NCBI GenBank assembly: GCA_030390025.1
Contig: CM059432.1
Location: 99,140,001-99,204,000, forward strand
From: Squalus acanthias
Taxonomy: Eukaryota
Length of the DNA stretch: 64,000 nucleotides
Direction of reading: 5' to 3'
The notes beneath the pieces are model-generated. The model worked only from the letters and a program-made list of their open reading frames with translations, made no database searches and was not told where the DNA came from. The first letter of the stretch is position 1. Every line of letters begins with the position of its first letter. Below, in pieces: positions 4,093 through 64,000 of the stretch. Both the position numbers and the translations under genes were made by a program.

Positions 4093-4265
4093 GTTCAGCT
4101 GCACGAGAGACCCCTCCACCCACCAGGGAATGGTAGCATAGTGGTTATGTTACTGGTCGTTCTCGTCGAACCAGTATTGCTGTTTCCTGGTCAAGTGACC
4201 GAGCGTCTCTTCACAGGTGCTGATTATGGAGGCCTTGAGTGCAGACCAGGCGCTGTGGACACTCT

Positions 4266-7200
4266 GGGCTCGATTTTGTCATTGGGGTGGACTGGGGGCG
4301 TGTCAGACGCTTTTCGTGTTAGCCACCCGACTCCAATTTGATGTGGGAAAAATATGCGATTTTCCCCTAATTGGGCAATTGATTTCCAGCGTGTGGGAAC
4401 CCCTGACCCAATTAGTCTTTCCATCCTGAAAATCGCCTCCGATGACATCATCAATGCTGCTGGATTTAAGGCCTGCAAGCAGCCTTGCTTCTTCTGCAGA
4501 CTGCAAACCTTATGCCCTTTGCTGTGGTAGATTACTCCAGCCAATATGTCCAGCAGTAGGTCAAAGTCTGCACCAAGGTTCGATGACACCTCCCTGCAAG
4601 CTCTGGTGGAGGGAGCAAGAGGGAATAAGGAGGTGCTTTTCCCTTACTCAGGGAGGAAGAAGTCTCCCCAGCAGACGAAAGCTGTGTGGATGCAAGTGGC
4701 CCAGGAGGTCAACTCTTTGTCTGTGTGCCGATGAACCTGGCTGCGGTGCAGGAAGAGGTTTCATGGCCTTCTGCGCAATGGAAAAGTGAGTATGACTTTC
4801 CCATCACCCTCAATCTGATCCCCATTGCCTCTCCTCACCAGCACTCAGCTTTGACAACCTCTTCCTCCACATCCCACTTGACACTGACATCCCTGCACCC
4901 TTACACATTCCCTCTCTCTCTATGGTCACATTCACCTAACTATTCGACTATGCAACCCTCACACTCCCTATCGCTGTGATGCTATGAAAACAACTTACAA
5001 CACACAGGGAGGGCCCTTGGTCTTGCCACCTCACTCCATCTTTGTCTCCTTCTAACCATCAATGCTATGGATTCTCTACACTCACTCCTTCATTCTCACT
5101 CAAACTCCACTTGTCTCCCTCATTGCAGGAAAAGAGAGCTCACAATAAGAGGGAAAGAGTGAGGACAGGAGGAGGGCCACCCTCAGTAGCCCAGCTCACC
5201 CCCTGGGAGGAGGCGGCCCTGGAGATCGTGGGAGTGGAGGAGGATGCGCAAGTGGGGGACGGACAGACGGGTGCATCAGAGCAAGCTGGTGACAGAATAG
5301 TTTATCATCTCTCTCATTGACATTGCATGAGTCACTGATAATGATTCTGATGCTCTAACAGATTGACTTTTGATCATCTGTAATATTCAATGTGCATGTA
5401 ACCTTGACCACACATCTCTGACTCTTTCCTTTACTCCCCCACAGGACCATCGAAAGCCCCCATCCCCACTATCCAGGTGGAACAGCCTGAGCCTCCAGAC
5501 TCCTCAGAGGAAGCTGCAACCTCTGAGGGCGCCGCGTCAGCAGAATTCAGCGCACCCAGCACCAGCGCAGACACTCACACCTCGGTGGTACCTTCGCGAG
5601 ATAGTGTAGTGTTGTCACCTGGTGTATCACAGCTCACAAGTGAGCATCAGCATATGGTGGAGACAGGGACAGCAGTGGAGAGTCCTAGTCAGAGGGCGCA
5701 GGACTCTGCCAGCTCGGCTCAGCTGCATGTCGACCCTCTGCCTCCGGGTCCATCCAGAAGAAGAGCGGTGCTGGAACTCCAGGAACAGGTGCAGGAGTCT
5801 CTGGCAGGTTTCGTCTCCAGGGTCGCTGAGAGTGTGGAGCGAATGGAGGAGTCCATCGCGAACATGAGCAGAGCCTTTGTGGAGGCATTGGCGCATGAAC
5901 ACATCACCACGGAAAGGATGGCAACCTCCATGGAAAGGATGGCTACCTCCATGGTAAGGCTGGCTACCATAGAGGAGAGGATGGCTACGTCCATGGAGGA
6001 GCTTAGTCGCCAGGGTATGGAAAACATGGTATTTGTTCAGAATAGCATGACATCTCTTGAGGAGCGATGGTCAGCTCTTGAGCAAATAAATCAGACCTTC
6101 AGGCAAGTCCTCGGGAGTAGGACTTCCAGTACAGAAATGGGTCCTCATGGCCCCCCTGAATTGCAGCAAGGTGCTGTCAAGCCACTTGCTAGCTCTGAAG
6201 TGGGGCTGACCCATGAGAGGGATGTTGCTGGCAGACAACAAGGAAGTGGGGGCTCCTCTCCAAGCGCTCACACGACCATTCCACTGCAAAGTCCTCGGTC
6301 AGAGCCCCACCAGAGTCCCCATCAAACTGAGATCGGCGTCTCAACCCCTGCACAGCTGCAGGAGCAGCAGACTGTTGCCGAGCCCTCACAGGTTCACAAC
6401 CCCAGAGGACACCCACCAAAGGTGTCAAAACAGGAGCAGCAAGAAAGTGAGCAAGGGGCCTTCACATCTGCTGAAGCCACAGGGGAAGCACCATGTAGGA
6501 GCAAATCTGGCCAAGATGAGTGCGTGCCTTGCATCCCGGCCAGCAATGTGCTCGCATGCTGCTAGCGCTGGTTGATGCGCCTCTGCAAGCTGGTCGTTGT
6601 TGCTCTCCTCCTCCTCCGACGGGCTTCCATGTGCTGGCGCCTTCTGGCCTGTGCAGCTTCAGGTGGGTGAGCAGCAGCTTGGAGCTCCCGCTGTTGCTCC
6701 TGCAGTTGGTGCTGCTGTTGTTCAGAGTTCTGCTGCTGCCGCGGCTGGTCTTCGTCCGAATCTGAAGTCCATTCTTCTGGTATATTCCTCAGTTGAGGAA
6801 GCGCTCATTCAATGTGGGGAGAGGGGTTTCCCAGGAGGTCACACTGGAGATGGGTGTCAGGCTCCAAACTTCCACAACAATGAGTAGGCCTGTAAAAAGT
6901 TCCCCCAGACCTGAGACAACAAAGTTCTGCCACCTGCAAATGAAGATTGCTGAAAACTCCTTTTTAATGGTGGAGCTGCAGCTGTTAGTAAGCAATCCAC
7001 TTGTGCTGCTGCCAGGTTTCACTGGCGTTTTTCAGAGGAGGCGTGCAGCATGTGGGAAAACTGTTAAAATCAGAAAGGCCTCTCAAAATTGGATTATAGA
7101 GGCACTTAACTGGTTGTTAAGGGCCTTAAGGGCCTATCCCGCCTCTTCGAGGCGGGATGGAAACGGGGTCAGAAAACTCGCATGTGGGAAAATTGCTCAT

Positions 7201-7302
7201 GGGCGGGATGGAGGCGGGATTGGGCCCGCCCGCCAGTTTTTGCGATTTTAACACCTCACACGCCTCCAATCCCGCCTCCTCGGGCCTGGCAAAATCGAGC
7301 CC
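4266..7302 (+). mobile_element. Harbinger element A (Myb gene retained, transposase core absent)
   Basis: TIR GGGCTCGATTTTG at both ends; 3-bp TSD TCT; interrupts the RTE reading frame. Confidence 0.93.
4546..6565 (+). pseudogene. Three-exon Harbinger Myb/SANT-like gene (exons 4546-4785, 5129-5288, 5445-6565), one premature stop
   Basis: APRFDDTSLQALVEG...W..VA..VN...TW..CRKRF trihelix motif; exon 2 KRAHNKRERVRTGGG; GT-AG junctions keep frame; TGA at 4732-4734; the last ~20 codons read across a deletion junction. Confidence 0.85.
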
Positions 7303-8901
7303 TCTGTGTCTCTGAATCACTGGGAGTCGTCAGGTTGGTTGTGAGGCCCAGGCTGAATAGGGCTTTCTTAGCGGGGTCTTTGAGTGCTCCAGCATTGATT
7401 TTCCTGCGGCATTGTTTCTGTTGCCGCCGCTGTTTTGGGGCTACGTTGATGGAGATGACAGAGCGGATTAGGCGGTAGTCTGTCCAGCAGTCGTTAGCTC
7501 CTGTCATGGCGCGGGTGATGCGGATGTCCTTGCGGTCCCTCGCTCAGACGATGACGTAGTCCAGCAGATGCCAGTGCTTGGAGCGAGGATGTTGCCATGA
7601 AGCCTTGTACTTGTCTGTCTGACGGAACAAGGTGTTTGTTATGACAGGGCCATGTTCTAAGCATTTCATCAGGAGGAGGGTACCGTTGGAGTTGGCTTTC
7701 CCTACCCGCTCTCTGCCGATCACACCTCCCCAGAGGTCTGTGTCCTTTCCAACTCTGGCGTTAAAGTCGCCAAGGAGGATCAGCTTGACGTCGTCTCCAG
7801 CCCAGATTCAAGGTCGTCCTATCCTCTGTCATCGAATTGCAGTATGCAGACGGCACTTGTGTCTGCGCACACTCGGAGGTAGAACTCCAAACCATCGTCA
7901 ACACCTTCACCGAAGCATACGAGAGCATGGGCCTTACACTAAACATCCGTAAGACAAAGGTCCTCTACCAACCTGCCCCCGCCACAAAGTACTGCCCCCG
8001 ATTATCAAAATCCACAATGAGGCCTTGGACAACGTGGACCACTTTCCATACCTCGGGAGCCTACAGTCAACAAGAGCAGACGTCGATGACGAAGTCCAAC
8101 CCCGCCTTCAGTGTGCCAGTGCAGCCTTCGGTCACCTGAGGAAGAGAGTGTTTGAAGACCAGGACCTCAAACCCGGCAATAGGCTCATGGTCTACAGAGC
8201 AGTAGTGATACCCGCCCTGCTGTATGCCTCAGAGACGTGGATCATGTACAGCAGGCACCTCAAAGCACTGGAGAGGCTCCACCAACGCTGCCTCCGCAAG
8301 ATCCTGCAAATCCATTGGCAGGATAGGCGCACCAACGTCAGTGTTCTCGCACAGGCCAACAGCCCCAGCATCGAAGCTTTGACCACACTCGATCAGCTCC
8401 GATGGACGGGCCACATCGTCCGCATGCCCGATACGAGACTCCCAAAACAAGCACTCTACTCGGAGCTCCGACACGGCAAGAGAGCCCCAGGTGGCAGAGG
8501 AAACGTTTCAAGGACACCCTCAAAGCCTCCTTGAAAAAGTGTAACATCCCCACCGACACCTGGGAATCCCTGGCCAAGACCGCACAAAGTGGAGGAGAAG
8601 CATCCGGGAAGGTGCCAAACACCTCGAGCCTCTTCGCTGGGAGCAAGCGGAAGCCAAGCACAAGCAACTGAAGGAGCGCACGTCAACCCAAGCACCCCAC
8701 CCACCCGCCCCTTCAACCACCGTCTGCCCCACCTGTGACAGAGACTGTAGGTCCCGTATTGGACTCATCAGTCACCTGAGAACTCATTTTTAGTGTGGAA
8801 GCAAGTCATCCTCGATTCCGAGGGACTGCCTAAGAGAGAGAGAAGGGGTTATGTTACTGTACTAGTAATCCACAAGCCTGGACTAATAATCTGGAGACAT
8901 G

Positions 8902-11900
8902 GGGCTCGATTTTAATTTCCGAGGCGGGTTGGAGTCGGGTTGCGTGGTGGGCGGGTTCGGGAGCCGCTTCCAACAGGAACAGCTGCAGAGTTGCAATTTT
9001 TATTAAAGTACCTTGTTAATTTCATGGAGGCGCGCTGGCCAGTCCAATGCGTGTGATCGGGTCAGCTGGCCGCCTCTGATGACGTCATAATAGCAGCTGT
9101 TTTTAAAGCTGCCATCCAGCTGCCATCCTTTCCATTGTGGTTTCCTGCACTTGTTTTCAAAGCTATGACTTCTTCCAGGGTCAAGCCAGCTCCTCGTTTT
9201 AATGATGACTCCGTCCATGTTCTTGTGGATGCTGTCAGAGGGCGCAGGGAGATTCTCTTCCCTCCTGATGGCTGGAGGAAGCCTCCTCAACAGACCAAGG
9301 CAGCCTGGCTGCGCATTGCTTAGGAGGTGAGCGCAAGGTCCATTTATACACGGTCATGGATTCAGTGCTGCAAAAGGTTTAATGATCTTGTGAGAACATC
9401 AAAAGTGAGTATCCCATCTCACTTGCCTTCACTCTGCTTCCCTTCCCTTCTCATCACCAGCACTCTGCTTTGTAAGCCTCCTCCTTCAGATCCCACCTTA
9501 CTCTACTTCCCTTGCACCCTTTCCTATCCATCTCTGTCTCTGCACTGAATCACTTCAGCATGCTGCCTATGCACCCCTTAGACTCACTCTCACTGTCATG
9601 CAGTGACAACAACTAACAACACACAGGGAGCTACCTTCCTCTTGGCACCTTACCCCATCTTAGTCTCACTCAAAGCTTCTATGGTAGGGATTATTCACAC
9701 TCCCTCCATCACTGTGGTTGAAACTCCGCTTGTGTCCCTCCTTGCAGGAAAAGATAGCCCACAATAAGAGGGAGAGAGCACTGACTGGAGGAGGTACATC
9801 ACCCTAGCAACATTGACCAGTGCCGAGGAGGCTGCACACAAAATTGTTGGAGTTGGCGAGGACCTGGAAGTAGGCGATGGAGAGACGGGCACACTAGAGG
9901 AAGCTGGTGACATAATAGAGTTTCATCCCTCTCAGAAAGCACTGCAATATGATGTTCCTAGAGAATCGCTTTGTATCATCTGCTCAAAAGGATGGGGGTG
10001 ATTTTATCAATGGGGACGTGATGGAGGCGGGAATGCTGCTTGTCGGGTTTTAGTCCCGCCTCCATCTACATCCGGCCAACCCACGCTATTTTCCCTTGAT
10101 TGACCTTGTTAAACCCGCCCAGCGGGCTTAGCAGGCCAATTAACGGAAAGCCGGTGACAGAGAACGTCAGCGTATGACGTTTCATCTGTCAATATTTTTT
10201 GACAGATGAATTTTCATCGTTTGACAGCTCTGTGAAGCTGTCAATCACTGACAATCTGTCTTTTAAGTTGAGTCTTTTACTGAAGACTCACTTAGAAAGC
10301 TTTCCTGAGCAGAAAGCAGAAGGCTGCTGCATTTAAGAATGCAGCGGCCATCTGCCATCTCTGCCGATGAGATGAGGCAGCTCCGCAGCCTAAAGGGATG
10401 AAGCCTGGAGGAAGAAGCAAAGGTAAGTAATCTTATTAAAACACTTTAGACTCACCTCACACACTTACCTCTCCACACTTGCACTCATCACTCACCTGCA
10501 CACCGGACATTTCGGCCCCTCCGACCCCCGCAGACCCACGGCTCGCCTCGCTGACCCTGGCGAGGTTCGGTGCTGTCGGGAAGCCCACACTTTAGGTCGC
10601 AAAATAGGGATTAGCCAAAAAACTGCCTGTTAACAGACAGTTAATTGGCACTAATCCCCTTCCCGCCTCGAGGAGACGGGACCTGGCGCGGGTCGGGTAC
10701 CCGCCTCCTGGGAAGATGGCACGGAGGCGGGTTGGGGGCGGGATGGGTACCCGCTCCCTGATTCTGTCATTTTCCCGGCAGTCCCGCCTCCCCAGGGCTG
10801 GCAAAATCGCCCCCGATGTGTCTGCTACATCAATATCAGATGTCTAATTCAAGCCTTTACTCTCCCACAGGACCATCGATGCCCCCCTCCCCACGATCCA
10901 GGACGAAGAGCCGGACAACTCCTCAGAGGAACCTGAAGCCTCTGAGGGAGCAGCGTCACCAGGACTCAGTGCACTCAGCACCAGTGCAACAATGCACACC
11001 TCGGTGGTGCCATCGCGAGTTAGCGTAGTGTTGCCACCTGGTCTATCACAGCGCACAAGTGAGCATCAGCAGATGGTGGAGACAGTGACAGCAGTGGAGA
11101 GTCCTCTGCAGAGGTCTCAGGACTATCCTAGCTCTGCTGAGCTGCATGCAGACGCTGTGCTTCTGGGGCCATCCAGAAAAATGGCCTCTCGGGAAATACA
11201 GAAACAAGTGCAGGAGTCTCTGGAAGGGTTTGCCTCCAGGGTTAGTGCGAGTGTGGAGGGAATGGAGGAGTCCATCTCTAACATCAGCACTGCCGTGGTG
11301 GAGGCAATGGCACATGAATGCACCACCATGGATAGGATGGCAACCTCCGTGGAAAGGATGGCTACCTCAGTGGAAAGGGTGGCTATGGCCATGGAGGAAA
11401 TAAGTCGCCAGAGTCAGGAAAACATGGTGACTGTTCAGAATAGAATTACATCTCTGGAGGAGCGATAGGCAACTATTGAGCAAAGAGACCAGAGCTTCAT
11501 GGAGATCCTTGTGATGAGGACTGCCAGTGCAGATACGGGTCCTCATGGTCCCCCTGAAGTGCAGCAAGGTGCTCTCCTGCCACTTGCAAGCACTGAGGTG
11601 CGGCTGACCCATGAGAGGGATGTTGTTGGCAGGACAGAAGGAAGTGTGGGCTCCTCTCAAAGCGCTCACACGACCATGCCACTGCGGAGCCCTTGGTCAG
11701 AGACCCACTTTGCAGAGACAACCGTTTCAGCCCCTGCACAGCCGCAGGAAGAGCAGACTGTTGCAGAGCCCTCCCAGGCTCCCAAACCCAGAGGACGCCC
11801 GCCAAAGGCGTCTAAGCAGGCGCAGCATCCTAGTCAGCAAAAGCCACAGGGGAAGCACCACGTAGAAGCACACGTAAGAGAAAGATTAAGCACCTATAGT

Positions 11901-12914
11901 CACAAGGGGACTCACTTGGGTGATGTTTCTTTTTTTCTGACTGTTGCTGATATATTTTGTTATGTGTTAAAGATAAATTATGTCAAACAGTTGATTGTGT
12001 GGCCTTTGTGTTCTGGGAAATGACAAAAGCGCATTGAGTGCTCAGGGCAACTTGCTGATGGTAAAAGTGATAGGAAATAAGAGGGTATAGCAGAGATGAA
12101 GTGTGACATTGGTCAAGTGTCGCCTGCAATTACAGAGCCATATGGTGGCCACCTATGGTTGAAGAGTAAGCTTATGGTCGTGTGTCATGGCAGTGTGCAT
12201 ACCCTGGTTGACGGCAGCAGTGAACTGGGGGGATGCTGCATTGGTCACAACAGGGCATGCAAGGCTCCCCTCATCCTCCTCCTACTCCTCTTCCCAGGAA
12301 GATCTGTGCTGAGCCACGCGGCTGCTACTACCCCAATTATGAGGGCCAGGATGAGAGGGCATAAATGTTTCCCATCCCCTTGCTATAGATTTCATTTGAG
12401 GCAACAATCTTGCAAGCGCACAGTTGAAGTGGCCTGAAATATTTCCATTGATGACACACTGCAGATGGGTGTCAGCATGAACAGTCACAAGGTCAATAGA
12501 TGTGTAAAATGTTATCCCATACCTACAACAGCAAAGTTGTTGCATTTGAATGTCAGCCATGTTTCGGGGGCGCTTTTAAAGCGCTCCACCAATGCATACA
12601 AATCATGTCCTCCAGCAACTCGTCTCCTTGAACCTGATCTGTTTCTGACTAGTCGGGAAACAGGAGCCAGAAGCAGGAAAATGGGAAACCTCTATGAAAA
12701 TAAGATTAGCAAGGCAGTTAACAGGCTGTTAACTGCCTTAACTACCTGTCCCACCGGTTGGAGACGGATCAGTTTGGGCGCGGCTAAACAGACACTCAGG
12801 AAAACGGGTGGGGGCAGATTGGAGACGGGTTGGGTATCTGAAGCCATTTTTCTTGATTTTCCCCAACAGACCCGCCTACAAACCCGCCTCCTCAGGGCTA
12901 TTAAAATCGAGCCC
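8902..12914 (+). mobile_element. Harbinger element B (Myb gene retained, transposase core absent)
   Basis: TIR GGGCTCGATTTTAAT at both ends; TSD ATG/ACG; Myb exons ~9165-9403, ~9748-9907, ~10871-11900 homologous to element A, with stops. Confidence 0.92.
9994..10814. mobile_element. Non-autonomous Harbinger MITE nested in intron 2 of element B
   Basis: TIRs GGGGGTGATTTT / GGGGGCGATTTT; TSD GAT. Confidence 0.9.
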
Positions 12915-12970
12915 ACGAGTTCAAATCCCATGGCAGCTGGAGAATTTAAATTCAGTTCATTAGAAAGATA

Positions 12971-13441: not shown

Positions 13442-13710
13442 GGGCTGGATTTTCTCAATAGAGACGAGTTAGAGGCGGGACTGTTGCTTGTCGTGTCAAT
13501 GTCCCACCTCCATCCTCGTCTGACCAACCAGAGGGATTTTCCCCTGATTGACCTTGTTAAGCCCGCCCTGCGGGCTCAGTAGGCCAATTAGGGAGGAAGT
13601 CACTGACAGAGCACGTCAACATCAGACGTGCTATCTGTCAAGACTTCTTGGAAGAAGAAATGTCAGCGTTTGACAGCTCTGTGAAGCTGTCAAACACTGA
13701 CATTCTCTGT
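13442..13710. mobile_element. One-ended Harbinger MITE fragment related to 9994-10814
   Basis: Starts GGGCTGGATTTT; colinear similarity to 9994-10260. Confidence 0.8.
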
Positions 13711-20622: not shown

Positions 20623-22123
20623 AAAGCAAAATACTGTGGATGCTGGAAATCTGAAATAAAAACAGAAAATGCTGGAAATACTCAGCAGGTCAGGCAGCAT
20701 CTGTGGAGAGAGAAACAGAGTTAATGTTTCAGGTCGATGACCCTTCGTCAGAACTGGAAAAAGCTGGAGATGGAACAGGTTTTTAAGCAAGTGCAGAGGC
20801 CGGGAAAGGGGGGAGGGGAGGAAAGAACAAAAGGGAAGGTCTGTGATAGGATGGAAGGCAGGAGAGATTAAGAGACATTAAGAGAGATTAAGAAATGGTG
20901 CAAGGCAAAAGGAGATGGTAATGGAACAAGTTAAGAAACAAAAGATGGCTCTAGATGAAGTATAAATGACACTGGCAGAATGAAAGACAGCTGCAATGTG
21001 GGGGAGAGAAAAAAAAAGAAAATAAATAAATAAGTGGAAAAAAAAGGATAGGGGCAGAGGTTATGGTCTGAAATTGTTGAACTCTATGTTGAGTCCAGAA
21101 GGCTGTAAAGTGCCTAATCGAAAGATGAGGTGCTGTTACTTGAGCTTACGTTGAGCTTCATTGGAACAGTGTAAGAGGCCGAGGACGGTGAGGTCTGAGT
21201 GGGAGTGGAGCGGAGAATTAAAGTGACAGGCGACCGGAAGCTCAGGGTCACCCTTATGGACTGAATGGAGGTGTTCCGCAAAGCGGTCACCCAATCTGCC
21301 TTTGGTCTCCCCAATGTAGAGGAGACCGCATCGTGAGCAGTGAATACAGTATACTAAATTGCAAGAAGTACAAGTAAATCGCTGTTTCACCTGGAAGGAG
21401 TGTTTGGGACCCTGGACAGTGGGAAGGGTGGAGGTAAAAGGGCATGTGTTGCATCTCCAGTGCTTGCACGGGAAGGTGCCGGGCGAAGGGGAGGGTGTGT
21501 TGGCGGTGATAGAAGAGTGGACCAGGGTGTCGCGGAGGGAGCGGTCCCTTCGGAATGCTGAAAGGGGAGGTGAGGGGAAGATGGGTTTGGAGGTGGGATC
21601 ATGCTGGAGGTGGCGAAAAATGACGAAGGATGATCCGTTGAATGTGGAGGCTGGTGGGGTGAAAGGTGAGGACAAGGGGAGCCCTATCGTGGTTCTGGGA
21701 GGGTGGGGGAAGGGGTGAGAGCAGAAGTGCGGGAAATAGAACGGAGGCGGTCAAGGGCCATGTCAACCACAGTAGAGGGGAATCCTCGGTTGAGGAAAAA
21801 GGAAGACTCGTGCTTCCGACGTGTGCTTCCGCCATCTTTTGTTTCTTAACTTGTCCCATTACCATCAACTTTTGCCTTGCACCATTTCTTAATCTCTCTT
21901 AATGTCTCTTACTCTCTCCTGCCTTCCATCCTATCACAGACCTTCCCTTTTGTTCTTTCCTCCCCTCCCCCCTTTCCCTGCCCCTGCACTTGCTTAAAAA
22001 CCTGTTCCATCTCCAGCTTTTTCCAGTTCTGACGATGGGTCATTGACCTGAAACGTTAACTCTGTTTCTCTCTCCACAGATGCTGCCTGACCTGCTGAGT
22101 ATTTCCAGCATTTTCTGTTTTTA
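20623..22123 (-). mobile_element. Penelope-like element: GIY-YIG fragment between inverted pLTRs
   Basis: ORF 21136-21675 (NLVYCIHCSRCGLLYIGETKGRLGDRFAEH); ~300-bp inverted arms at ~20650-20950 and ~21830-22123; 15-bp TSD TTGCAAATTTTTCTT at 20608-20622 and 22124-22138. Confidence 0.92.
22025..22061 (+). ncRNA. Minimal type I hammerhead ribozyme motif in the Penelope pLTR
   Basis: AGTT-CTGACGA-T-GGGTC-ATT-GACCT-GAAA-CGTT-AACT: core boxes CUGANGA and GAAA, stem I AGUU/AACU, stem II, palindromic ACGU in place of stem III. Confidence 0.75.
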
Positions 22124-22482
22124 TTGCAAATTTTTCTTGATTACTTTTTAACTATAACTTAAAAGTAACTTGTAAACATTTCTTTTTTTAGGCTAACCTG
22201 CAGATGCACATTTAGCAAGAATCTGAAAAGTGGGGGAAATGGCAAAGTCTCTGTTACTGCTTTTTTGCTCATCTGGTTATTCAGATCTACTTTGATCTAC
22301 CTTGTTAAACTTTTCACAAAGAGAAAAATATGCCTCAAGTTGCTTTTTGCCAATAGGCTTCAGCTACTTAAAGCCATTAGCTTCTGCTGTGCCAAACAGT
22401 ATTCTGGGAAGAATAGCACCTGGTTTACTAAGTATACAATTGTCTATCATAGTATCTAGCTTTTTGCTTGCTTTACTCATTA

Positions 22483-23235: not shown

Positions 23236-23907
23236 ACCCCCCACCACCGCAACCCCACTCCCTCAACATGCCACCTTTATCCCGCTGCTAAATTTTCCTA
23301 AGTCCTTATACAGTAGAAAATAATAAATAGTTCACAAATCTGTGCTAAAGCTATGGGGGTGATTTCCCCCAGATAATTTAGATGCTAAAGAGTATTTGAG
23401 GTGGCCAAGATGGGGTATTAAGCTGCAACGCTGGTTTACCCAGTGTTTAGCCCAAGACGCCATCTTGGTAAAGGAGTTGAAGTGCGTAGACTCAGTGCCA
23501 GAAGGAACATTATGAGGCTGATTGACAATTAAATTGCCTGCTAGCGCTCATTAAAGAGGCTGCACGGCATTTTGGTGGGTAACGCTTCATTTAACGACCT
23601 CTCCTAACAGCGACCAGCTGAACAAGAGTACCAAGTCGTTTCCAACTATTTCAAGCGCTACTTAAAGCCATGCTCAGCTTTCACTGTTCACTTGCTGATG
23701 AGATCAACTAACTACACTGCATTTGAAGAGGACTTTTGAAACACATCGGGAGACTTTCTGGGACACTTTGTCAAGACTTCACCAACACTCTATCAATATT
23801 TTTCCCGGAAATTCTCTCAGAATTTCACCTAAAAATAGTGAGTGCTGTGCTACTCTACCTTATTGGACACCTTATAGGAATCATCAAGAGAAAGGGAGTG
23901 CTTGGTC

Positions 23908-25029
23908 ATGGGCATCTTGCTAAGGGTCCTCCTTGGTGGAGGAGATGAGGCAAGGCAGAGCAGCACCAGTGCTGCAGTAGAGAGGGACAAGAGGGCGAGA
24001 GGGTTCTCAGCAGGAGGCCCTACCCACCCAGGGTCTTCACATGATGCAAGACCAGTGCATGAGGAGGCTGCACTTTACCAAGGAGGTCGTCACAGAGATC
24101 TGTGGCCTCGTTGAACGAAGACTCAGATGTCACAGCACAGCCAGGACGGCATTGACTGTGGCAGCCAAGGTCACAGTGGCACTTAATTTTTATGCGACTG
24201 GAACCTTCCAGGCTACCACAGGTGATATAAGTCACATCTCTCAATCCTCTGTGCACTTCTGCATAAGGGAGGTCTTTGTGGCTCTATACACTCTGAGGAA
24301 TGACTACATATCATTCCCTATTTCCAGAGAAGACCAGAGGCAGAGAGCTCTAGGATTCAACAAGATTGTGGGATTCACCATGGTCCAGGGAGCCATTGAC
24401 TGTGCACATGTGGCCATGCGAGCCCCACAACGAAGGTGTTCAGGAACAGGAAGGGATTCCATTCCCTCAATGAGCAGCTTGTCTGCGACCACCAGCAGCA
24501 CATCGTGCAGGTGAATGCCTGCTATATAGGGAGCCACCATGATGTATTTATAATGAGGCAGTCACCTGTCCCACAGATCTTTGAGCCCCAGCAATGTGTG
24601 CATGGCTGACTAGTAGGTGACAAGGGATACCCTCTAATGCCATGACTCATGATTCCCCTGAGAAACCCCCAGACACCAGCTGAGCACTCATACAGTGAGA
24701 GTCACTCAGCTACCAGGAATATCATTGAGCAGATCATTGGGGTCCTCAAGCAGAGGTTTAGATGTCTTGACTGGTCAGGAGGTGCCCTGCAGTACATGGC
24801 CGAAAAGGTCTCCACATTCGTGGTGATTTGTTGCATGCTCCACTATCTGCCGATCATGAGAGACCAGCCGTTACCACCAGCAACTGTGCCAGAGGGTCCA
24901 GCTCAGGAGCCACAAGAGGAGGAAGAGGAGGAAGAGAAGGAGGACCAGGGGACGTACCAGAGGCTTCCAGGAAGACGGCCCACACATGAGAGGGATGCTC
25001 ACCATCATCTAATTGAAGGGCGTTGTTGA
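23908..25029 (+). pseudogene. Harbinger (HARBI1-like) DDE transposase, disrupted
   Basis: KVTVALNFYATG, GAIDCAHV, GDKGYP, IIEQIIGVLKQRFRCLD; frameshift and stop present. Confidence 0.92.
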
Positions 25030-25259
25030 GAGATGTGATCCACCATCAGACTCCAGAGCACTGGTGCCACATGATTTAATTTCGGATCCATCAGGCAGTC
25101 CATCATCTACACTCAATCCTTTAACCCCTTCCCCATGAAGATCATAATAGAAAAGGCCACCGATTCCACCACTACCCAATTACCATCATTACTCTTTATC
25201 TACATCAAAAACAAACAATGGAAACATGACACAACTGACAGCACTTACAAATATTAATC

Positions 25260-27010
25260 TATTCACCCTAGTGCTTACCCTTAGTGGCGATCTATAAGTG
25301 CTCTTGCCTAATCTGATGCTTCTATGAAGTGCAACCTGAGTGGCAGCAGCAGGCGAGGTGGATGGCTGCTGAGATTCTGAAGAGGGCAGTTCAGATGTCC
25401 TCCTGGGATGCCCTCGAGAGGCTGTGGGCCATGATGGCCCCGCCTCAGACTGCACCATCTCAGCATAACCTTCCGCAGTCTGGGCCGCCTGGCTGACAGG
25501 CAACTGGAAGGGCAATGGTGCCGTTGCACACATGGGAGCAGCAATGCTGGTATCCAGAGAGAGGCCAGTAGGTTCGTGTTCCATGATTCCCACGCCGCTA
25601 CCTCGGGGCCTCTGTTCAGCCCGCCCAGTGATCTGGTGGAGGACAGATCTCTGGCCATTGGAGATACTCTGCAAGCCCCTTTCAACTGAGGAGCCCAGAG
25701 CCACCATGGCAACTGCCTGAGCTTCCATTGCAGCACTTTGTCATTCCAGGTAAGCTGCAATGATTGCATCGGAAGCTGCAACCTTATTCATCAGACGCTG
25801 CTTGATGTCAGTCTCCACAGGCCACTGGCTAGAATTGGCCAGCTGGAGGCTCTGCATTAAGCCACGGACCAAGGTGGAGGTGGACTCCTCAATCCCTCTA
25901 GTCACAACCCATAAGTTTTCGGGCAGTCTCTCCATTGCACCAAGCACTTGGTTTGTCACACACTTCATCTGAAGCTTGGCCCTGCAAGGTCCTCATCTGC
26001 CTCCTCTACAGCAAAACTAGTATGCGGCCTGCGGTGTACCTTCCACCCTGCATGGCTGCTGCCCCCTAGTGCCTGGTGTGTCCCACTGAGAGGATTCCTC
26101 TTCTAACCCAGTCTCTAATTTACGCGTGGTGCCAGTTTCTGAGCTGGTGCCTGTAACAGTGGTAGCCATTGACACAGCGCATTCTTCCTCACTCTCCTCC
26201 TCCTCCTCTTCCTTCAGGGGGCAAGGTGACTGTTGCTCATCTTGAACTTGCTCCGGGGGCAAGGTGGATCTTGCTCCTGGCAGCCACAAATGATAAAGCT
26301 GGAAGGATTAGGGTGCAGTGCATGTGGTCATTGCAGGAGAATGTGTGTGATGAGACCATATGGAGCTTGGGAGTGAGGATAGCTTCAGGGGATTAGGGAT
26401 CAGGAATAGTTGTGCATCTATAAGGAAACTGGAGTGGGCACATACCTCGAGGCTATATGGCCCCATGCTCTGCCTCTGGCCACAGCATTTCCCACTCCCC
26501 TCCCGATCACGGCCAGCACTGCCTCCTCAAGAGGAGTATTCTCATGCAGATGTGGTTGACTCCCCTGGTCAGGTCCTGCTGCTGCCTGTTATGTGCTATT
26601 TTATTTCCTGGAACAAAATGTGGTGATTGTGAATGAGTGTATTGGCAGGTGTATTTGTGTGTGTGTGAAGAGCTGTGAGATATGTGTGAGCAGTGTCTGT
26701 AAAGGATGCAATAGTGTATGGTGTGTGAATGTCAGTGTATAGTTAAATTGTGGGTGAAGTATGTTGAGGTTGTCATGCTGGTGTGTTTGTGAGATGGGAT
26801 CTTACCTTGACCACTTGTGTCAAGTCATTAAATTTTGCGCAGCAGTGGAGCCATGGCCTTGGGTGATCTCCTCCCACATGCGCCACATTAGCTGTCTCTG
26901 TGGCCTCCTTCCCCCCTGTGGGTAGAGGACATCCCTCCTCCTCTGTACCTCCTCCACCACGACTGCATCGGAGGACCTGGGCACTCTTTCTCTATGTCTC
27001 TCAGACATCC
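25260..27010 (-). pseudogene. Harbinger Myb/SANT gene of element C, disrupted
   Basis: RERVPRSSD..VVEEVQRRRDVLYP...MWEEI; downstream acidic, S/T-rich and helical exon resembling elements A and B. Confidence 0.8.
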
Positions 27011-27292
27011 TTCCACGTTGGCTTCCCTCCCAGCCAGCACACTCCACATCTTCAGTGGAAATGGGTGAGGGCAGGCTATATGTACAACTCCAGGAAAATT
27101 GTGTCTAATCAGTGCTTGAGTGCTAAACCTGCAGTTGTCGGTTTCAGTGTCTGCAGGCACATTTAAATCATGATAATCATCAATTAGCCCAAAAAATGCC
27201 TGCTAAATCCACACTTACAAACAGGCGTTTCTTATTAGTACAGCACCCATTTGCCCAAAATAACCCCCTATGTTTTAATTATTCTTCAATTT

Positions 27293-29859: not shown

Positions 29860-31624
29860 ATGGAATTCCCAAAAGCTGGTCCAAGCAAAAGGAAGAGAGT
29901 GGTCTTAACTTTAAAGCAGAAAATCGAGATATGCCAATGACTAGAAAGGGGAGAGAAGCGTATCAACATTATGAATGAATTCAAAATCGGTTCGTCAACA
30001 ATCTACGACATCAAATCGCAGAAGGATAAGCTGCTCAAGTTTTATTCAAGCTCGGAGACATGTAAGAGTGTAGAGAAACGGCGTACGCTTCATAAGCCTA
30101 AGCTTGAAGAGCTGGATACCGTGCTTTATCAATGGTTTTCTCTTAAGCGTTCAGAGGGTGTTCCAATTTCCGGACCCATGCTAATCGAGAAAGCGAAGGA
30201 TTTCTACGAAAGGATGGAGCTCACTGACAAGTGTGCTTTCTCCGAGGGATGGCTAACGTGCTTCAAGTTACGGCATGGGATACGACGACTCGATATTTCC
30301 GGGGAGAAGAAATCAGCTGATCACGACGCCGCAGAAGAATACTGCGATTATTTCAATCGGATTGTGCAGCAACATGATTTGTCGCCAGCACAGATATATA
30401 ATGCCGATGAAACTGGCTTGTTTTGGAGGTTTTTGCCAGAATCAACGCTTGCTGGGGCTAGTGAGGCTAATGCTTCAGGTTACAAGAAAAATAAAGATCG
30501 TGTAACAGTGCTAACATGTGCGAACGCTGCTGGATCACACCGGGTTAAACTTCTTGTTATTGGGAAGTATAAAAATCCCCGTGCATTTAAAAATGTGAGG
30601 CACTTACCTGTTGAGTACGAAGCTCAAAAAAATGCTTGGATGGATAAGGAAATCTTCTCCGATTGGTTCCATCATATTTTTGTTCCATCTGTGAGGGAAC
30701 ATTTCCGTAAAATAGGGAAACGTGAAGATAGCAAATGCATTTTATTGCTTGATAATTGTTGAGCCCATCCGCATGAATCCGAGTTGGTTTCGGGAAATAT
30801 TTTCACCATTTATTTGCCACCAAATGTAACTTCTCTCATACAACCCATGGACCAGGGCGTTATCCAAAATCTGAAGTGTCATTACAAGAAAGACTTCCTA
30901 CGTAAACTGATAAGCCAAGATGACAATATTCACGCATTTCAGAAGGAATACAATTAAAGATGCCATCTATAATGTTGCATGTTCCTGGAACTTTGTGAAA
31001 GGTCACACTCTGAGGCAAGCCTGGCGCAAATTGTGGCCTTCTGTAATGTTTGCTGAAGGTTCTTCAGAGGAGGAGGAATTTCATGGGTCCAATGTTCGTC
31101 CCAAGAAGAGTACAATAATGGAAATGGCTGGCATGGTGAAAAATGCAGGCCCAGCAAACCCTTTACGTTACCTCAGTGAAAGTGATATCGAGCAGTGGGT
31201 TGATGCAGATAGAGAAGTTGGTGTTGTGCATATGCTAAGTGATGATGAAATAATTGAGAATGTTTTGAATCCAAAGAAAGAAAAGGAAAGTGAGATGGAA
31301 AGTGAAGAGGATGATATTTCTGAAGAGAACAAGATTTCTTGGGCTAAAGCTGCAGAAGGATTTTCTTCAATCCTCAAATTTGCTGAAAGGCAGACTTGCT
31401 ACTCTGCCCAAGAAATTATGCAACTCCATATTCTGCATTCCACGTTTCTACAGAAAAGGCAAGAGTCCACTAAGCAAACCGACATCCGCAACATGTTTAA
31501 GAAAGCTTCCAAAAGAGTCGAAGCAGCGGAAGTGCCTGAAGAATCTGTGGAATCTGTGGAACTGCATGTTCCTGATGACCCAGCTGGCACGGATATTCCT
31601 GATGAACCAGATGACTCGGAATAA
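29860..31624 (+). pseudogene. pogo-family (CENP-B/Jerky/TIGD-like) transposase, two stops and one frameshift
   Basis: KRKRVVLTLKQK, WF..KR...[32 protein letters not shown] at 29938 and 30760; frameshift near 30945. Confidence 0.93.
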
Positions 31625-39971: not shown

Positions 39972-41734
39972 GCGGGGGGTCAGCGGGCACGATCGGTGGC
40001 GGGTTGGGTGGGAAAATGTTTTTGGAAATGTGGGAAAATGGAACCCCGCTGTCAACCCGCCGCCATGCACCTTTCCCAAATGTCGGATCTGTCATCGCTA
40101 AGCAGACCTGACACGCAGCGGCGGGGGAGGCAATTCAAGTCATTATGACCCTGTTAACAGAGCATTAAGAACTATTTTCAGCTCACCTTCAGAGTTTACC
40201 AGGTTGCCCACGGGGTTTACGCTGCTCGGGGATCATGTCCGGTAAGCAGGGCAGGAGTTGAATGGCCATGGAATCATCTCATTACTTAACAGCTGCAAAT
40301 GTGCTATACAAGTTCCCATCTCACAGCTGTTTACTTTCCAAGCTCAGAAGCTGTTGCTTACTGCATTTGGAAGACAGATTGAGCTTTATGCAGGTTGCAA
40401 GTGTTTGGAGCAAACTCTCTATCCAGTGGTCACCTCATTGGAACAGCGTCTCTCACCATTGACAGATCGCTTCTGTCATCTCAACCTCACCTGCCATCTA
40501 TTCCATCAGCATCGGTGCCCTTGAAAAAATCTCACCCTGGTCCTCAGAATCCCACCACAATCAGCCCCAACACCAGCAGCACCAGGCACACCAGCAGCAC
40601 CAACAACACCAACCTTCTCCGCAATCAACTGATGCTGCACAGGACACAGGGCATCAGCACCCGACCACATTGCTGCCCGGGACGCGAGAGATGGCCTCAG
40701 CATGGCCAGATTTACTTCACTTGACGCTGCACACCCTGGCTGCCACCTGATGCGCCAGGTTGGCACCACCCCACACCAACACCATAAAGCATCCTACAAT
40801 GCCCAAGCCATTCATTTCACACTCATCAGTATTGCGGGGGGTACTGTTATGTCTCACCATTCACTGCAACTCAATAAACCATTTCCAAAGATGCACACAA
40901 ATCTGTCCAAGAACGCAAAGTGTTGAAAATAAAGATTTCAATGTTTGACAGCACATTAACAGAAACTTCACATGAACATTGACTAAAACACACAAGTGCC
41001 TACCCTTGTGTGTTGTTAGTTGGTATGATTGGACTAGGGTGAGTGTGAGGGGTGGCTAGTGAGATGGGGAAGTGATTAACGTAGATAGAAAGGGATGGGT
41101 GGAGGTGCAAGGTAAGTTGGTGTGAGTAAGGATGTGGAGGAGTAGGGTAGGGAAGGCAGAGTGATGGGGATGTGATGAGTGGCACAGGAGGATAAGGTTG
41201 AGTGTGGCTTTGCAGTAACGTTTCATGATCCACTGAGATCATTGAAAGGTTTGTGCCACTGCAGCCTGGTCCTCCTGACGACATCCCTGCTTTTGTCCTC
41301 CTGTGTAATGTGCAACCAGGCTGTGTTGATCTCCTGGGGAGGTCTCTTCCACCCTTGGAAGAGAAGAGAACCTCCCTGTGTGCTCTGAATCCCTCCATAA
41401 GCATATGGAGGGAGTCATGGGAGAGCCTGGGTGCAGCCGTGCACCTCTGTGCAGTGCTTGTCTGTGTTTGCAGCACCTCAATGCTGTAGAACACTGACAG
41501 CACAACTGTCAATCAATTTGCGCATGATCCCTTTAAGGAAACCAACTGATGACACGTCATCAAATGATGTCATGAGACCCGTTTCCTTCAATTGGCGGTA
41601 AATGTGCTGGGCGGGCTTAACAAGCCCAATCAGGGGAAAATCATTTTGGAAAGCGGGCTGGAGCCGGCAGCAAGTTGGGACCTGCCACCGACGTTGCCTG
41701 GCACGGACCCACTGAGGTTGGTAAAATTCAGCCC
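39972..41734 (-). mobile_element. Internally deleted Harbinger element D (left TIR lost)
   Basis: Right TIR GGGCTGAATTTT on -; frameshifted Myb exon 1 on - (AAPRLSHDSLHMLMEG..REVLF); transposase N- and C-terminal scraps on + at ~40510-40725. Confidence 0.8.
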
Positions 41735-43561: not shown

Positions 43562-46128
43562 GTAACACTGGCTGGAATTTGGATTACCAATCAAAGAATT
43601 TTCCACTATGTTGCCTACAAGTGTATCCGAGAGCTCAAACTGATAGAAAAGCTTAACAGTTGTCCAATCAACACCTTCATTGTTGGTCTGCATTTGAGGG
43701 CTAACATGAAGCGCATGGAAATGAAGAAAAAAGTTTGATCCCTATATCACTTACCTTCCAGTTTGAGCTGCACCAAGTAAGAAGGCACTGTTCCGAGGCC
43801 ATGGGATCTCCCAGCAGGAATGAATGATAAATCAGATGGAATATCATCATTGGGTAATGATTATGTACCTGTCAGCAACTGGCCAAAGGTAATATTGGCA
43901 GTGGTAAGCAAAGAAGCCATCCAAACCCCATCCAACCTTTTGGTGCCAGGAGGCTTGCAGTGGGACATATAATTAAAACAGGGAGAAAAATAAGGGTATC
44001 TGCACATCATTAGAGGATAAATACCCTTATTGAAAATGTGTGTGTATTTCAAATATGTTCCAAATTCAAATACCAAGAAACCTTTATTCAAGTAGCCCTT
44101 TTAAATCACATACCTGGCTCCTGTCTTCCATATTTCTGAATTGCAGGTCGTGTGGAACGTCAAGAACCTGTCATTGCTGTTGCCTACTTAACAGGGACTG
44201 CATTTCAAAAGCAATCCTTTGGTTCTAAGCTTTTTCTTATTCCACACTTCCTTTATGGATCTTCAAATCCTTGTGAGTAGCCATTTGCTCCTATTAATTT
44301 TTGTACATATTTCATTTTGGACTTCCTTTATTTTTTCACCATTATTTTAATATCTTTATTCAATGGATTAACGACTATTAAAATAATGCACCAAATAATT
44401 TAATGGAAATGCCGTAAGAAATGTGCCACCAGAGGAAGATAATTGGCTGTTTATTCATATATTTTACTTTTTCCTCCAGTATTTTTAGAAGTTGGACATG
44501 TTTGTAGGAGTTTCTAAGAAAGACTGATATACATAAATACCACGTACACAGGCCGGAATTTTCACTACCAAAAGCGCTGGCAGCGGGGGGCCCTAGATTG
44601 CATGGGGAACCCAGAAGTTTGTCGGCTTTTTAACAAAGCCACTGCATTTGCATCTGACTTCCAGGTTTCCCGACCAATTAACACAAGCAGGCGTGATGAC
44701 GTCATGCATGGGTCCAATTCAGCTGAGGTATTTAAAGGATTACTGCAAAGATGACAGTTAAAGGTTTGTGGAGGTGGCAGAATGATTGCATGGAGAAAGA
44801 AATTGAGTCGCAGCGTACAAAAGCTGCCCCTCGCTTCAGTGATGCCTCCCTGGACCTCCTGCTGCAAGGTGTTCGGGCCTCAGGGAGGTTTTATTCCCTG
44901 TAGACGAGAGGAAGATGCCAGCCTCCATGACAAAGGTGAGAAGCAAGAGTGTGGTGTTATGGTCATGGCTACAGTGCAGGAAGAGATTTAATGACCATCA
45001 GGAAAGGTGAGTACAATGCCACATTCAACTACATCCTGATGTGCATGTCACCCCAACCCCCTCACTCTGCCTTCCCAAGCCTACTCCTGCACATCATTAT
45101 CACACCAACCTACCTTGCAGGTGCACGCATCCGTCACTGTCTATGCACTTACTTACATCCCCATGTGACCATCCACCACTGACACTCACCCTCATCTTAA
45201 TACAATGTCACGTCTCTCCCTCATAGTCACCCTCGACAGATGTTGCCCATCCATCTGTTCCACTCATTCCATGAATCTCACTCAAAGGTCTCTTATGTCC
45301 CTCCTTGCAGGAGAAGAGAGCACAGAACACCAGGGAGAGGCAGAGAACTATAGTTGGCCCTTCAGTCAGCACCACGCTGACAGCAGCGGAGGAGGCACTG
45401 GAGTTAAGTGGAGTTCGGCATTCATGGTGGTTGGAGATGGAGAGACGGAGGACCTCCCAGCTATCTGGTGACAGAATTAAATATTTCACAGCCACATGGC
45501 ATACAACAATCACTCATGCTGACTTGATGTCAGCAGCCAGTGAAATATGATCATGTGCATAATGTTCACTTAAAACAGTCTAACCATGACAGTTCTAATT
45601 CATGTCTTTACTCTCCTACAGGCCCATCAAGTGTCCTCTCTCACTGTCCAGCCAGATGAGGAAGAAGAGTCCTTAGAGAAGGTCACTAATTCTGAGGGTG
45701 CAACATCACAGGGCGCATGCACACCAAGCACAAGCGCAGATATACACACGTCGGTGGGACAATCAAGTCAGATAGTAGTGTCACCTGGTGTCTCACAGAT
45801 CACATGTGAGCAAGAGCAGATGGTGGAGACAGGGAAAGCAATGGAGAGTCCTCGTCAGAGGGAGCAAATCACTCCAAGCTCTGCACAGCTGGGCGCAGAT
45901 GCTGAACCTTGGGGGCCATCGACAAAGAGGATGATTCTGGAGGAGCAACAGAAAATGTGTGAGGTTCTTGCAGGATTTCCTGCCGCGATGTGCACACTTG
46001 CAGAGAGAATGGAGGAGTCCATCTCACGCATGACTGGCATGATGTCGCAGGCATTAGCTATGATATGTTCGTCCATGGAAAGGGTGGCCACCTGCATGGA
46101 GCATCAAACCTGGCACTCTAATGAGTGC

Positions 46129-47050
46129 TGTAAAATTTCCAAAATTTGCAGATCCCCAAAAAAATATCTAAAGGAAAAAAATAAGGACATTGGAACTTTA
46201 AAAGGAACATGTCTGGACATGTACGGCACGTGGATTGTCTGGGAATTCAAAGCCCAGCAAAGATTAACATTTGGACAATAGGCCCTGGGAGAAGGCCGCC
46301 CCACCCAAAACACAGAGCCCATAGGAATGCTAGGCCCAGCAAGGAACCCAAAGCATGAGAACAATGCAAGCTTCCATGGAACAACAGCGCAACAGGATGT
46401 AAGCCATTTGATTTGGTTTAGCATAGTTGAAGGCCCATCAAAATTTAACAAGACAATGAACAGGCCTCACCTGAAAACTCACTGCATTACGAAACCAGTT
46501 TTCGTGAGGAGTTTTGTTGGGGGGGTGGTGGGGGGGGCGCGAAAAAGGACTATATCTGCAGCAGGACCCAAGATTTCTTTCTCTTTTGACTCGCCGACCA
46601 TGCTGGAACAACTCTCCCTCTCAGCTCTGCCCAGAAGCCACATGGTAAAGGAAGACACTCGATGACCAGAATCACCATCGACTTACCTGGCTGGATTTCT
46701 TACTGTTAATACCCCTGTTTGGTGAGCATTATCCCTGATCTCCTGAAACCGAAACCTAGCTAGAAGTGGGATTTTTGGGAGGGATAAAGGTTTTTTTTTC
46801 TTGTATACTGTCATTTTCCCTCACCTGTAACCGTGTGTTCCCCAAACCTGTTTAAGTGTGAAGTGTGTTTAAGCTTGTTACCTTTTAATTTTAATAAAAG
46901 TTATAGTTCTTTCATCGGAACCTGTGGTCTACTGCATCTTTATTCACAACCCCTAAATAAGTCCAAGTTTTGAACCTGGGGCGTGGGAGCGATTCGAACC
47001 GCTCACTAAGTCAGGGGAAAGGCTGACCCCTACCACAACCACCCCCTACA
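46129..47050 (+). mobile_element. Solo LTR (922 bp) inside the Myb exon 3 of element E
   Basis: TGTA...TACA termini; TSD GTGC; AATAAA at 46893. Confidence 0.9.
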
Positions 47051-47236
47051 GTGCACGCCCTCATCAACAGCTTGCACATTCTGAATGCCACCTTAACTAG
47101 GTTGGATCAAAACCTAGCCTTGGCCGTTCATTGTCCCGCTGATGTGCAGCAAAGTGCTATCCAGCTCATTGCTAGCAGAGAAGTGCACGTGGGCCGTGAG
47201 AGGGATGATGGCGAAAGGGGACATAGAAGTGAGGAC

Positions 47237-47377
47237 CAATGCTCCCCGTAAATTCTTTTGGGTGCGTGGCCCATTTAAGGGGCTGCGAGACCCATTCACA
47301 GGTTCGGGCATGCGCGAACTTTAACATAGGAAAACCGGTCCCGGGTTGCGCGGCCGCGCAGCTTATCGGGAACGTTG
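47237..47377. mobile_element. 141-bp hAT-type MITE
   Basis: TIRs CAATGCTCCCCGTAA / CAACGTTCCCGATAA; 8-bp TSD GTGAGGAC/GTGGGGAC. Confidence 0.85.
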
Positions 47378-48699
47378 GTGGGGACTCTTCAAGTGCTTTC
47401 ACTTCTCACCCGTTGTCACCACCCTCCGCCCCAGTCAGTGCCCCACATGCTGCCTCATGTCCTGATGGCTGAGTCTGCCCCTGCACAGGTGTAGGTGGAG
47501 CAGTCTTTGGCGGGGCCCTCACGGGCTCCAAAACCCAGAGGACATTGGCCAAGAGCATCTGAGCTGTCAGAGCAGGGAAGTGAGCAGCCTGCCTCTACCT
47601 CTGCTGAAGCCACAGGGGTTGCATGACATAGAAGTGGTAGGAAGAGGAATATGAAATAATTCTGGTTGCACAAAGGTATTGCACATGGATGTGTTCGCCA
47701 ATGTTACAATGTCAAGTTTATGTTTAAATTTTGAGGCACATAAAATTATTTCTTTGCACCACTTTCCCATCTTGCCCATTTTTGCCTGCTGCCTGGCAAG
47801 TGGCCTTGTCACTTGCAATGAATGGTAAGACTGTGAGCAATAGGTGTCTGTGAAAGAAATGTTTTGGTCATTGTAGGACTGCTTTGTAGTTGTGAGTGTG
47901 TGGGTGGGGGGAAAGTGGGTTCAGCATCTGGGTGCCAGATGGGTGCACTGGTGCAACCTAACTAAATTGTGCCTTTGAGGCCATCCCAGGCATCCCACGC
48001 AGCAGTGTGCGGCGCTGCTGGTTCCATGTCCACAGCAAGTTCCTCCTCCTCCTCCTCCTCCAAAGAGGCTCTGCGCCTTGCTCCTCCTGCAGCTCCAATC
48101 CTCACTGCTGCGCTATCTTGTGCAGATTGCAGCATACCGTGATCATTCTGGAGACCCTGGCTGGTGCTTATTGAAGGGCTCCTCCAGATCTGTCCAGGCA
48201 TCTGAAGCGCATCTTCAACATCCCGATCACTTGCTCTATTACACATCTCATCATCATCTGGCTTTGAGTGTAGTGCTCTTTGGCCTCCTCAAGGGTGTCA
48301 TCAGCCACATCTTCAGTGGATACCCCTTGTCTCCAAGCAGCTAGATGATGAGTCTGGTCGGAGGTGTGAAGAGCTGAGGGAGAGTGGACTGGTGCAGGAT
48401 GAATGAATCGTGGCAGCTCCCTGGGATTCTGGCACACCCCTGCATGATGGTTTTTTTGTGGTTGCTCATTGATGGAGTGGAAGCCCTTGTGGTTCACAAA
48501 CACTCCTGGGTGATCTGGGGGTGCCTTGATCGCTACATGTGTGCAGTTAATGATGCCCTTGGCAGCTGGTCTTGTTCCAGCAGGCTACAAATGTCTGTCA
48601 TGACTTGACACGATACTCTGAGCCTCCTGAGGCACTGCTGTTCAGATATGTCCAGGAAACTGATACTCTGCCTATATACCCTGTGAGAAGTCGCTATTT

Positions 48700-63900: not shown

Positions 63901-64000
63901 TTAGGGTAAGTGCGCCTTTAAAATCCAACAATGCTGGTTAGAGTGCATCTACAGTGCCCAACACAGACTTGCAGCCTAAAAACGAAAATGCCCCCCAAAT

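Follow-up and report, generated by a model that had tools for sequence, protein, structure and literature searches.

Core-less, Myb-bearing Harbinger elements in Squalus acanthias: dead copies of families that were probably mobilized in trans

The DNA considered here is a window of 64,000 nucleotides from Squalus acanthias (assembly GCA_030390025.1, contig CM059432.1, positions 99,140,001 to 99,204,000 of the forward strand). It consists of repeat-rich vertebrate DNA and harbors six Myb-bearing Harbinger-type transposable elements, named A to F in the order of their location. On balance, we regard A and B as dead copies of core-less Harbinger families, i.e., families devoid of the catalytic core of the transposase, which likely spread on the transposase of complete elements and in which the Myb gene was likely a passenger rather than kept by selection. 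The steps of this account that can be read directly are the insertion with a target site duplication (TSD), the absence of the core, three deletion junctions, the abundance of A-like sequence, and lesions private to A. Coordinates are collected in Table 1.

The core is missing from four of the six Myb-bearing elements (A, B, D, and F). Five transposases of full or near-full length, four from sharks and one from sturgeon, match C and E (E-values down to 1e-66 and 1e-44) and give no core match to the other four elements. Likewise, the DDE transposase frame (PF13359) is absent from A, B, D, and F, and present but broken in C and E. An earlier note on this DNA, which had denied a DDE core to A and B, is thereby borne out. 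The sole meaningful transposase match among the core-less elements is that of the tail of P0007 (XP_067838454.1, a shark HARBI1-like protein that ends in a tail like that of A) on A at 6646-6500 (E-value 0.036); the two remaining matches, to B and F with E-values of about 0.02, sit near the left ends of these elements. As a reference, element E is itself incomplete, with residues about 79-152 of P0012 finding no match. The Myb/SANT-like domain PF13873 scores above the Pfam cut-off in exon 1 of A, B, and F. The closest named relatives of the Myb and transposase proteins of the window come from sharks and rays, namely Heptranchias perlo, Pristiophorus japonicus, and Heterodontus francisci.

Both A and B are bounded by the perfect 12-bp terminal inverted repeat (TIR) GGGCTCGATTTT, 12/12 at both ends. 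A 12-bp TIR with a 3-bp TSD is in itself within chance (one in the window, zero to three in five shuffled windows), and hence, it is the empty site that confirms A. Excision of A together with one TSD copy in silico yields a continuous in-frame reading frame resembling that of a long interspersed nuclear element (LINE), and joints of the empty site (4261->7302) occur in all four sequencing runs that were aligned. B is inserted in a repeat resembling a short interspersed nuclear element (SINE). Of the intact TIRs and TSDs formerly ascribed to both elements, the TIRs hold for both and the TSD for A, while the TSD copies of B differ by one mismatch. The target consensus TWA (PMC13668399) is matched by none of the five readable TSDs of the window (TCT, ATG/ACG, GAT, TAT, and ACA/AGA). 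As TWA is likewise lacking in C and E, which are of the complete type, the non-TWA TSD is read as a trait of these shark families. Seven of the 42 CCCGCC motifs of the window fall in a stretch of 139 bp near the right end of A, where they are candidate Myb-binding sites.

In A, the Q/P-rich N-terminal start of the transposase gene is joined directly to the acidic C-terminal tail. The earlier note had described such joins for A and D; we confirm both and find the same arrangement in B. The join of A does not preserve the frame. It falls within a run of triplets, which encodes Arg-Arg-Arg when read with the N-terminus and Glu-Glu-Glu when read with the tail. The join likely arose via microhomology, its parent sequence not being found: among 26 candidates, none was a longer protein bearing the 40-residue tail of A. 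The alignment of this tail with that of P0007 is weak, as 45 of 2000 shuffles score as high. In B, about codon 20 is joined to a point ~8 codons ahead of the acidic run, and in D the junction leads from a few codons before the break of A to ~20 codons beyond the acidic run. The three readable core junctions are all different (3/3), and those of B and D, unlike that of A, are not situated in a triplet run. Since A, B, and D represent separate families, about 60-75% alike, this is a matter of independent origins and not of absent spread.

Relatives of A were sought in 24 listed sequencing runs. Part of A occurs in 20 of them and half or more of its words in 10, the best share being 0.62. Four of the 24 runs, from four organisms, were aligned to A at 85% likeness; X1 and X15 are DNA-like, X16 and X18 are RNA by guess only. 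Results on these alignments refer to 24 of 3302 loose ends, 15 of 205 joints, and 40 of 623 differences, with X1 undercounted. The four runs contain 111,878, 23,490, 1,049, and 750 A-like contigs, respectively, mostly 90-99% alike. Depth per contig is about 3-15 in the two DNA-like runs; the summed depth of 10^4-10^6 is unused as a copy number, because overlapping short contigs are counted repeatedly. A-like sequence is very high-copy, no count being derived. With respect to the core-less form, no loose end among those listed lies at the core junction of A (6605-6617), and a joint from the transposase tail to its N-terminus (6535->6633) occurs in two of the four runs, X1 and X15 (one contig each, sides of 29 and 36 letters). 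Together, these two results give a weak hint that core-less forms are multi-copy. Among the listed pieces, no contig runs across the core junction of A.

The Myb gene of A reads as one frame over three exons, as the earlier note had it. The joined exons comprise 506 codons, of which only codon 63 is a stop (TGA); it falls inside the DNA-binding domain. Thus, the former description of a frame open for ~500 codons apart from one TGA is accurate as a count, but the end of this frame is not Myb. At 6503, the frame passes a second deletion and continues in the transposase tail, read in antisense, from which its last ~20 codons derive. The deletion took the basic C-terminus and the stop of the Myb gene, the intergenic stretch of the two convergent genes, and the stop of the transposase gene. 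Loose ends at 6503, carrying the normal basic end of Myb, occur in 260, 93, none listed, and 6 contigs of the four runs. Furthermore, 26 bp directly after the transposase ATG were lost with a frameshift; the same gap appears against B, and a loose end is listed at 6769. At position 4732, about 99% of the depth reads A (AGA, Arg) in all four runs (41, 15, 2, and 2 contigs), which makes the stop of A private. CpG decay as the origin of the TGA is rejected on the same reading of the relatives. A motif in exon 3 (6407-6415), which we take to be AT-hook-like, has the residues G-H-P in A versus G-R-P in B, F, and P0023.

These lesions agree with neutral decay of A. At nine listed exonic sites at least 85% of the X1 depth differs from A; six of these near-fixed changes are replacing, one of them the stop, and three are silent. 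This is close to the 76% of replacing changes expected without selection (the nine sites stem from the listed differences, eight further exonic ones below 85% in X1 being left out). In a neutral simulation of 486 codons, at most one stop and no frameshift remained in 43%, 31%, 19%, and 7% of runs at 1, 1.5, 2, and 3% divergence, where an indel rate of 1 per 15 substitutions is assumed. Depending on the private divergence of A, its near-open frame may plausibly be due to luck.

The other core-less elements fare no better, and an intact Myb gene is found in none of the four. B had been credited with a three-exon Myb gene; its exons are identifiable, but on the frame of A they contain stops at 9321 and 11466 and four frameshifting gaps (near 9799, 10879, 11713-11723 (net), and 11841), and intron 2 harbors a nested miniature inverted-repeat transposable element (MITE). 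Of its Myb gene, D retains no more than exon 1 and a portion of intron 1. In F, exon 1 is fused straight to the last ~140 codons of exon 3, with a frameshift and intron-free, and F is a step towards a MITE. Since two of the four core-less elements (D and F) have lost most of Myb, core deletion does not spare this gene.

We propose the following course of events. Within the transposase gene, gap repair at short repeats would have deleted ~0.8-0.9 kb, from the low-complexity start to the acidic tail. The shortened element would retain both ends and the binding sites and could be copied in trans, its smaller size may aid copying, and each new copy would afterwards decay neutrally. Smaller PIF/Harbinger elements were reported to excise and insert more often (PMC10288884).

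Several findings weigh against this account. A second full-length copy with the junction of A was not obtained, and spread of the core-less form is only hinted at. At the stop of A ~99% of the depth is open, and the listed differences include no common exonic indel; the family majority may be open at Myb, which also fits selection. A spliced GT..AG joint (4785->5129) appears in a single contig of X18, and both DNA-like runs lack it. Between A and B, the ratio of replacing to silent substitution rates (dN/dS; Nei-Gojobori, 460 codons) is 0.23 (0.10-0.45) for exon 1 and 0.20 (0.07-0.42) for exon 2. At 4% and 6% divergence, the simulation leaves a near-open frame by luck in only 2.4% and 0.25% of runs. 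Finally, in Caenorhabditis inopinata the expansion of the Harbinger branch bearing a MADF gene far exceeded that of the branch with DDE (PMC13668399).

Alternatively, A and B were complete upon insertion and were deprived of their cores separately and in situ, at hotspots of short repeats, such that no core-less family ever spread. The differing junctions point in this direction, as do the location of the junction of A in a triplet run prone to repeated deletion, the two further deletions of A (6503 and 6769), which are absent from most of its relatives, and the broken state of all six elements of the window. However, differing junctions in separate families are expected under either model, the tail-to-N-terminus joint recurs in two of four runs, and no loose end at the core junction is listed, though the other two breaks of A are. 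We consider copy-by-copy loss of the core unlikely.

The earlier note had favored a semi-autonomous class that supplies its own DNA-binding adaptor and borrows transposase in trans. Parts of this proposal stand: the elements are non-autonomous and must borrow transposase, the family of A is abundant, its relatives are open at the stop of A, and the transcript of a related Myb gene appears to be spliced. A working adaptor under selection finds no support in these copies, given the lack of any intact Myb among the four core-less elements, its extensive loss in two of them, and the differing junctions. That core-less lineages keep a functional Myb protein, which binds their own ends and recruits the transposase of others, appears improbable to us, even if the evidence is not one-sided. 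Relatives of A keep the basic C-terminus beside the open frame, intron 1 is spliced at the predicted sites in one run, dN/dS of exons 1 and 2 is about 0.2, and the ends diverge together with the Myb domain while exon 3 is shared. The combination of ORF1 and transposase proteins of Ping and Pong functions in mixed pairs (PMC2836001), and C. inopinata harbors an active element of the MADF-only kind (PMC13668399). Contigs, on the other hand, cannot separate core-less from complete elements, and the open frames and the spliced intron-1 joint may come from complete ones; D and F have dropped Myb as well. The A-B values for dS are 1.78, 1.27, and 0.25 for exons 1, 2, and 3, and dN/dS of exon 3 is 0.72 (0.53-1.04), a range that spans 1. 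Because the deletions of A and B are independent, the long branch of exons 1 and 2 (dS 1.3-1.8) lies probably for the most part in autonomous ancestors, and the constraint probably predates the core deletions. Moreover, the protein of a DNA transposon is made in the cytoplasm and serves all copies alike, such that the encoding copy gains little.

With regard to splicing, which had been suggested as a check at 4785/5129 and 5288/5445, the first joint is that of X18 described above, and 5288->5445 is not among the joints listed. Given their short sides, the joints near 5795-5798->6662 and 5055->5660 were discounted as probable products of repeats. Another joint, 4596->5611, is confined to the two RNA-guessed runs (depth 373 and 8) and may stem from transcription of a Myb copy that has diverged or suffered a deletion. 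A metagenome scan with the exon 3 protein of A returned 104 pattern matches, none of them confirmed, and scans of metagenomes with a DNA motif of A and of viral contigs returned none.

The comparison of A, B, and F reveals a mosaic. A and B are 55-65% alike in their ends and on the transposase side, and 79-86% alike in exon 3. In exon 1, no pair is more distant than A and B, and sites shared by these two alone are the rarest class (11 versus 27 and 30). In exon 3, no pair is closer, and in its tail such sites form the commonest class (47 versus 24 and 36). The closest pair thus differs between exon 1 and the exon 3 tail (4546-4785 versus 6075-6502 in A; chi-square 15.1, p 0.0005). Contig depth is several-fold higher over exon 3 and intron 1 than over the ends and exon 1. 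The pattern fits an exchange of modules between families, with rate differences being possible as well for three sequences. In the plant pair HDP1/HDP2, the transposase-derived protein is bound by the C-terminal part of its Myb-derived partner (PMC5339849), and by analogy exon 3 would be a likely transposase-binding module. On these grounds, shark Harbingers could be modular, such that the ends and the DNA-binding exon of Myb match each other like lock and key within a family, exon 3 is swapped between families, and core-less elements are selected adaptor parasites which bring their own key and recruit any transposase that binds the shared module. Of this, the mosaic is seen and selection after core loss is not, and we give the modular reading little credence.

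Intron 1 of the Myb gene measures 343 bp in both A (4786-5128) and B (9405-9747) and is 73% identical in an almost gapless alignment, a figure that holds for this near-ungapped comparison only, since gapped shuffle alignments reach 0.59 and are too lax a control. In the exons on either side, identity between A and B at synonymous sites is only 32-39%. The intron is either constrained or exchanged between families.

Domestication of the Myb gene of A by its host finds some parallel in Myb genes of this type that rays and sharks retain among their annotated genes (the P0020 cluster, four ray species), yet it is scarcely conceivable in view of the stop in the DNA-binding domain, the intact TIRs and TSD, the position in a fragment of a LINE, and look-alike contigs that number in the thousands. 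For A and B alike, domestication is refuted by their stops; neither is a single-copy gene without TIRs and with an intact frame, as is typical of the NAIF1 type. Independently of A and B, P0015 and P0016 of Pristiophorus japonicus comprise two or three tandem Harbinger-type Myb domains, and the P0019/P0020 cluster, maintained in four ray species, consists of candidate domesticated genes.

The preferred reading, core-less families moved by the transposase of complete elements, has counterparts in other hosts. Harbingers constitute a two-protein system in which both proteins are needed, the Myb protein binding the ends and carrying the transposase into the nucleus (PMC2836001). For zebrafish Harbinger3_DR, the Myb-like protein is described as binding both ends and transposase and bringing the latter into the nucleus (as cited in PMC2836001 and PMC13668399); the related Harbinger3N_DR encodes neither protein, whereas A and B keep the Myb gene. 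Harbinger-1M_cIno of C. inopinata has the MADF gene but no DDE frame, occurs in multiple copies, and was mobile until recently; it is inferred to be moved by transposase in trans, a supply that its authors call hypothetical (PMC13668399). It resembles A and B in its TIRs, the 3-bp TSD, the retained Myb/MADF gene, the missing DDE frame, and the preservation of both ends. In contrast, 14 of its 19 MADF-only loci have stayed intact, one new insertion has been documented, and its TSD is TWA, while A and B are pseudogenes with non-TWA TSDs and retain stubs of transposase start and tail. In the sea krait Laticauda colubrina, 452 intact DNA-binding-only variants of Harbinger-Snek stand against 2263 transposase-only variants (PMC8437027). 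As the transposase-only variants outnumber the others there, both solo forms can spread. These multi-copy DNA-binding-only variants, ascribed to large deletions, are like A and B in a vertebrate; unlike them, Harbinger-Snek is a recent horizontal invader with many intact copies and a commoner transposase-only form (PMC8437027). Myb-bearing Harbingers are also expanded and expressed in Pleurodeles (PMC5741667).

Thus, the Myb-only core-less Harbinger is a published class (PMC13668399, PMC8437027), found here in a new host group. A 2022 survey reports no Harbingers in elephant shark and calls for tests of other cartilaginous fish (PMC9179366), and in the open-licence literature we found no report of Myb-only Harbingers in sharks. 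Among annotated proteins, P0023 (XP_067827223.1, Myb-like, Heptranchias perlo) covers 337 residues of exon 3 of A with 36% identity (E-value 7e-33), and it carries the AT-hook-like motif and the basic end as well. If the favored explanation is true, sharks join the hosts of Myb-only Harbingers, and three separate routes have led to the same core-less anatomy. For the field, the question is whether selection maintains a Myb-only branch or whether such a branch is just carried along. Several independent and abundant core-less families within one genome would permit a dN/dS test on post-deletion branches.

Table 1. Features of elements A to F in the 64-kb window (window coordinates)
Feature	Position	Strand	Remarks
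Element A	4266-7302	.	3037-bp transposase-deleted Harbinger; TIRs, TSD, empty site
A left TIR	4266-4277	+	right TIR 7291-7302, 12/12 complementary
A left TSD TCT	4263-4265	+	right copy 7303-7305
A Myb exon 1	4546-4785	+	Myb/SANT domain PF13873; TGA 4732-4734
A Myb intron 1	4786-5128	+	343 bp, GT..AG
A Myb exon 2	5129-5288	+	
A Myb exon 3	5445-6503	+	cut at 6503; AT-hook-like motif 6407-6415
A second deletion junction	6500-6505	.	loose ends in relatives' contigs; A-B alignment
A transposase C-terminal tail	6503-6617	-	acidic run, ends HIAGRDARHALILARF
A core-deletion junction	6605-6617	.	13-bp triplet run
A transposase N-terminal remnant	6618-6772	-	Q/P-rich; ATG 6772-6770
7 CCCGCC motifs	7138-7276	.	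candidate Myb-binding sites (predicted), near A right end
Element B	8902-12914	.	transposase-deleted Harbinger, 3189 bp minus nested MITE
B TSD	8899-8901, 12915-12917		ATG / ACG
B Myb pseudogene	9165-11899	+	exons 9165-9404, 9748-9906, 10871-11899
Harbinger-type MITE in B intron 2	9994-10814	.	821 bp, TSD GAT/GAT, 8 CCCGCC motifs
B transposase remnant	12153-12375	-	~20 N-terminal codons joined near 12315 to acidic tail
Element C	23355-27268		Harbinger-type, Myb-bearing
Element D	about 40000-41734		Harbinger-type, Myb-bearing, core-less
D transposase remnant	40500-40740	+	junction near 40655-40660
Element E	about 44551-49460		Harbinger-type, Myb-bearing
Element F	62817-63996	.	about 1180 bp, without transposase
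Readable TSDs, left copies	4263-4265, 8899-8901, 9991-9993, 23352-23354, 44548-44550		

Further repeats were observed in the window. A left end akin to that of the MITE nested in B lies 500 bp past B (13442-13706; 79% over 259 bp), and the right end of the nested MITE (9994-10814) resembles the right end of A. An inverted pair of 303-bp copies, 96% alike, flanks a reading frame at 20647-22133, which we presume to be like the end of a Penelope-type element. At 29941-31621, two long frames (273 and 236 residues), broken once, presumably represent a pogo/Tigger-like transposase, judged by their motifs.

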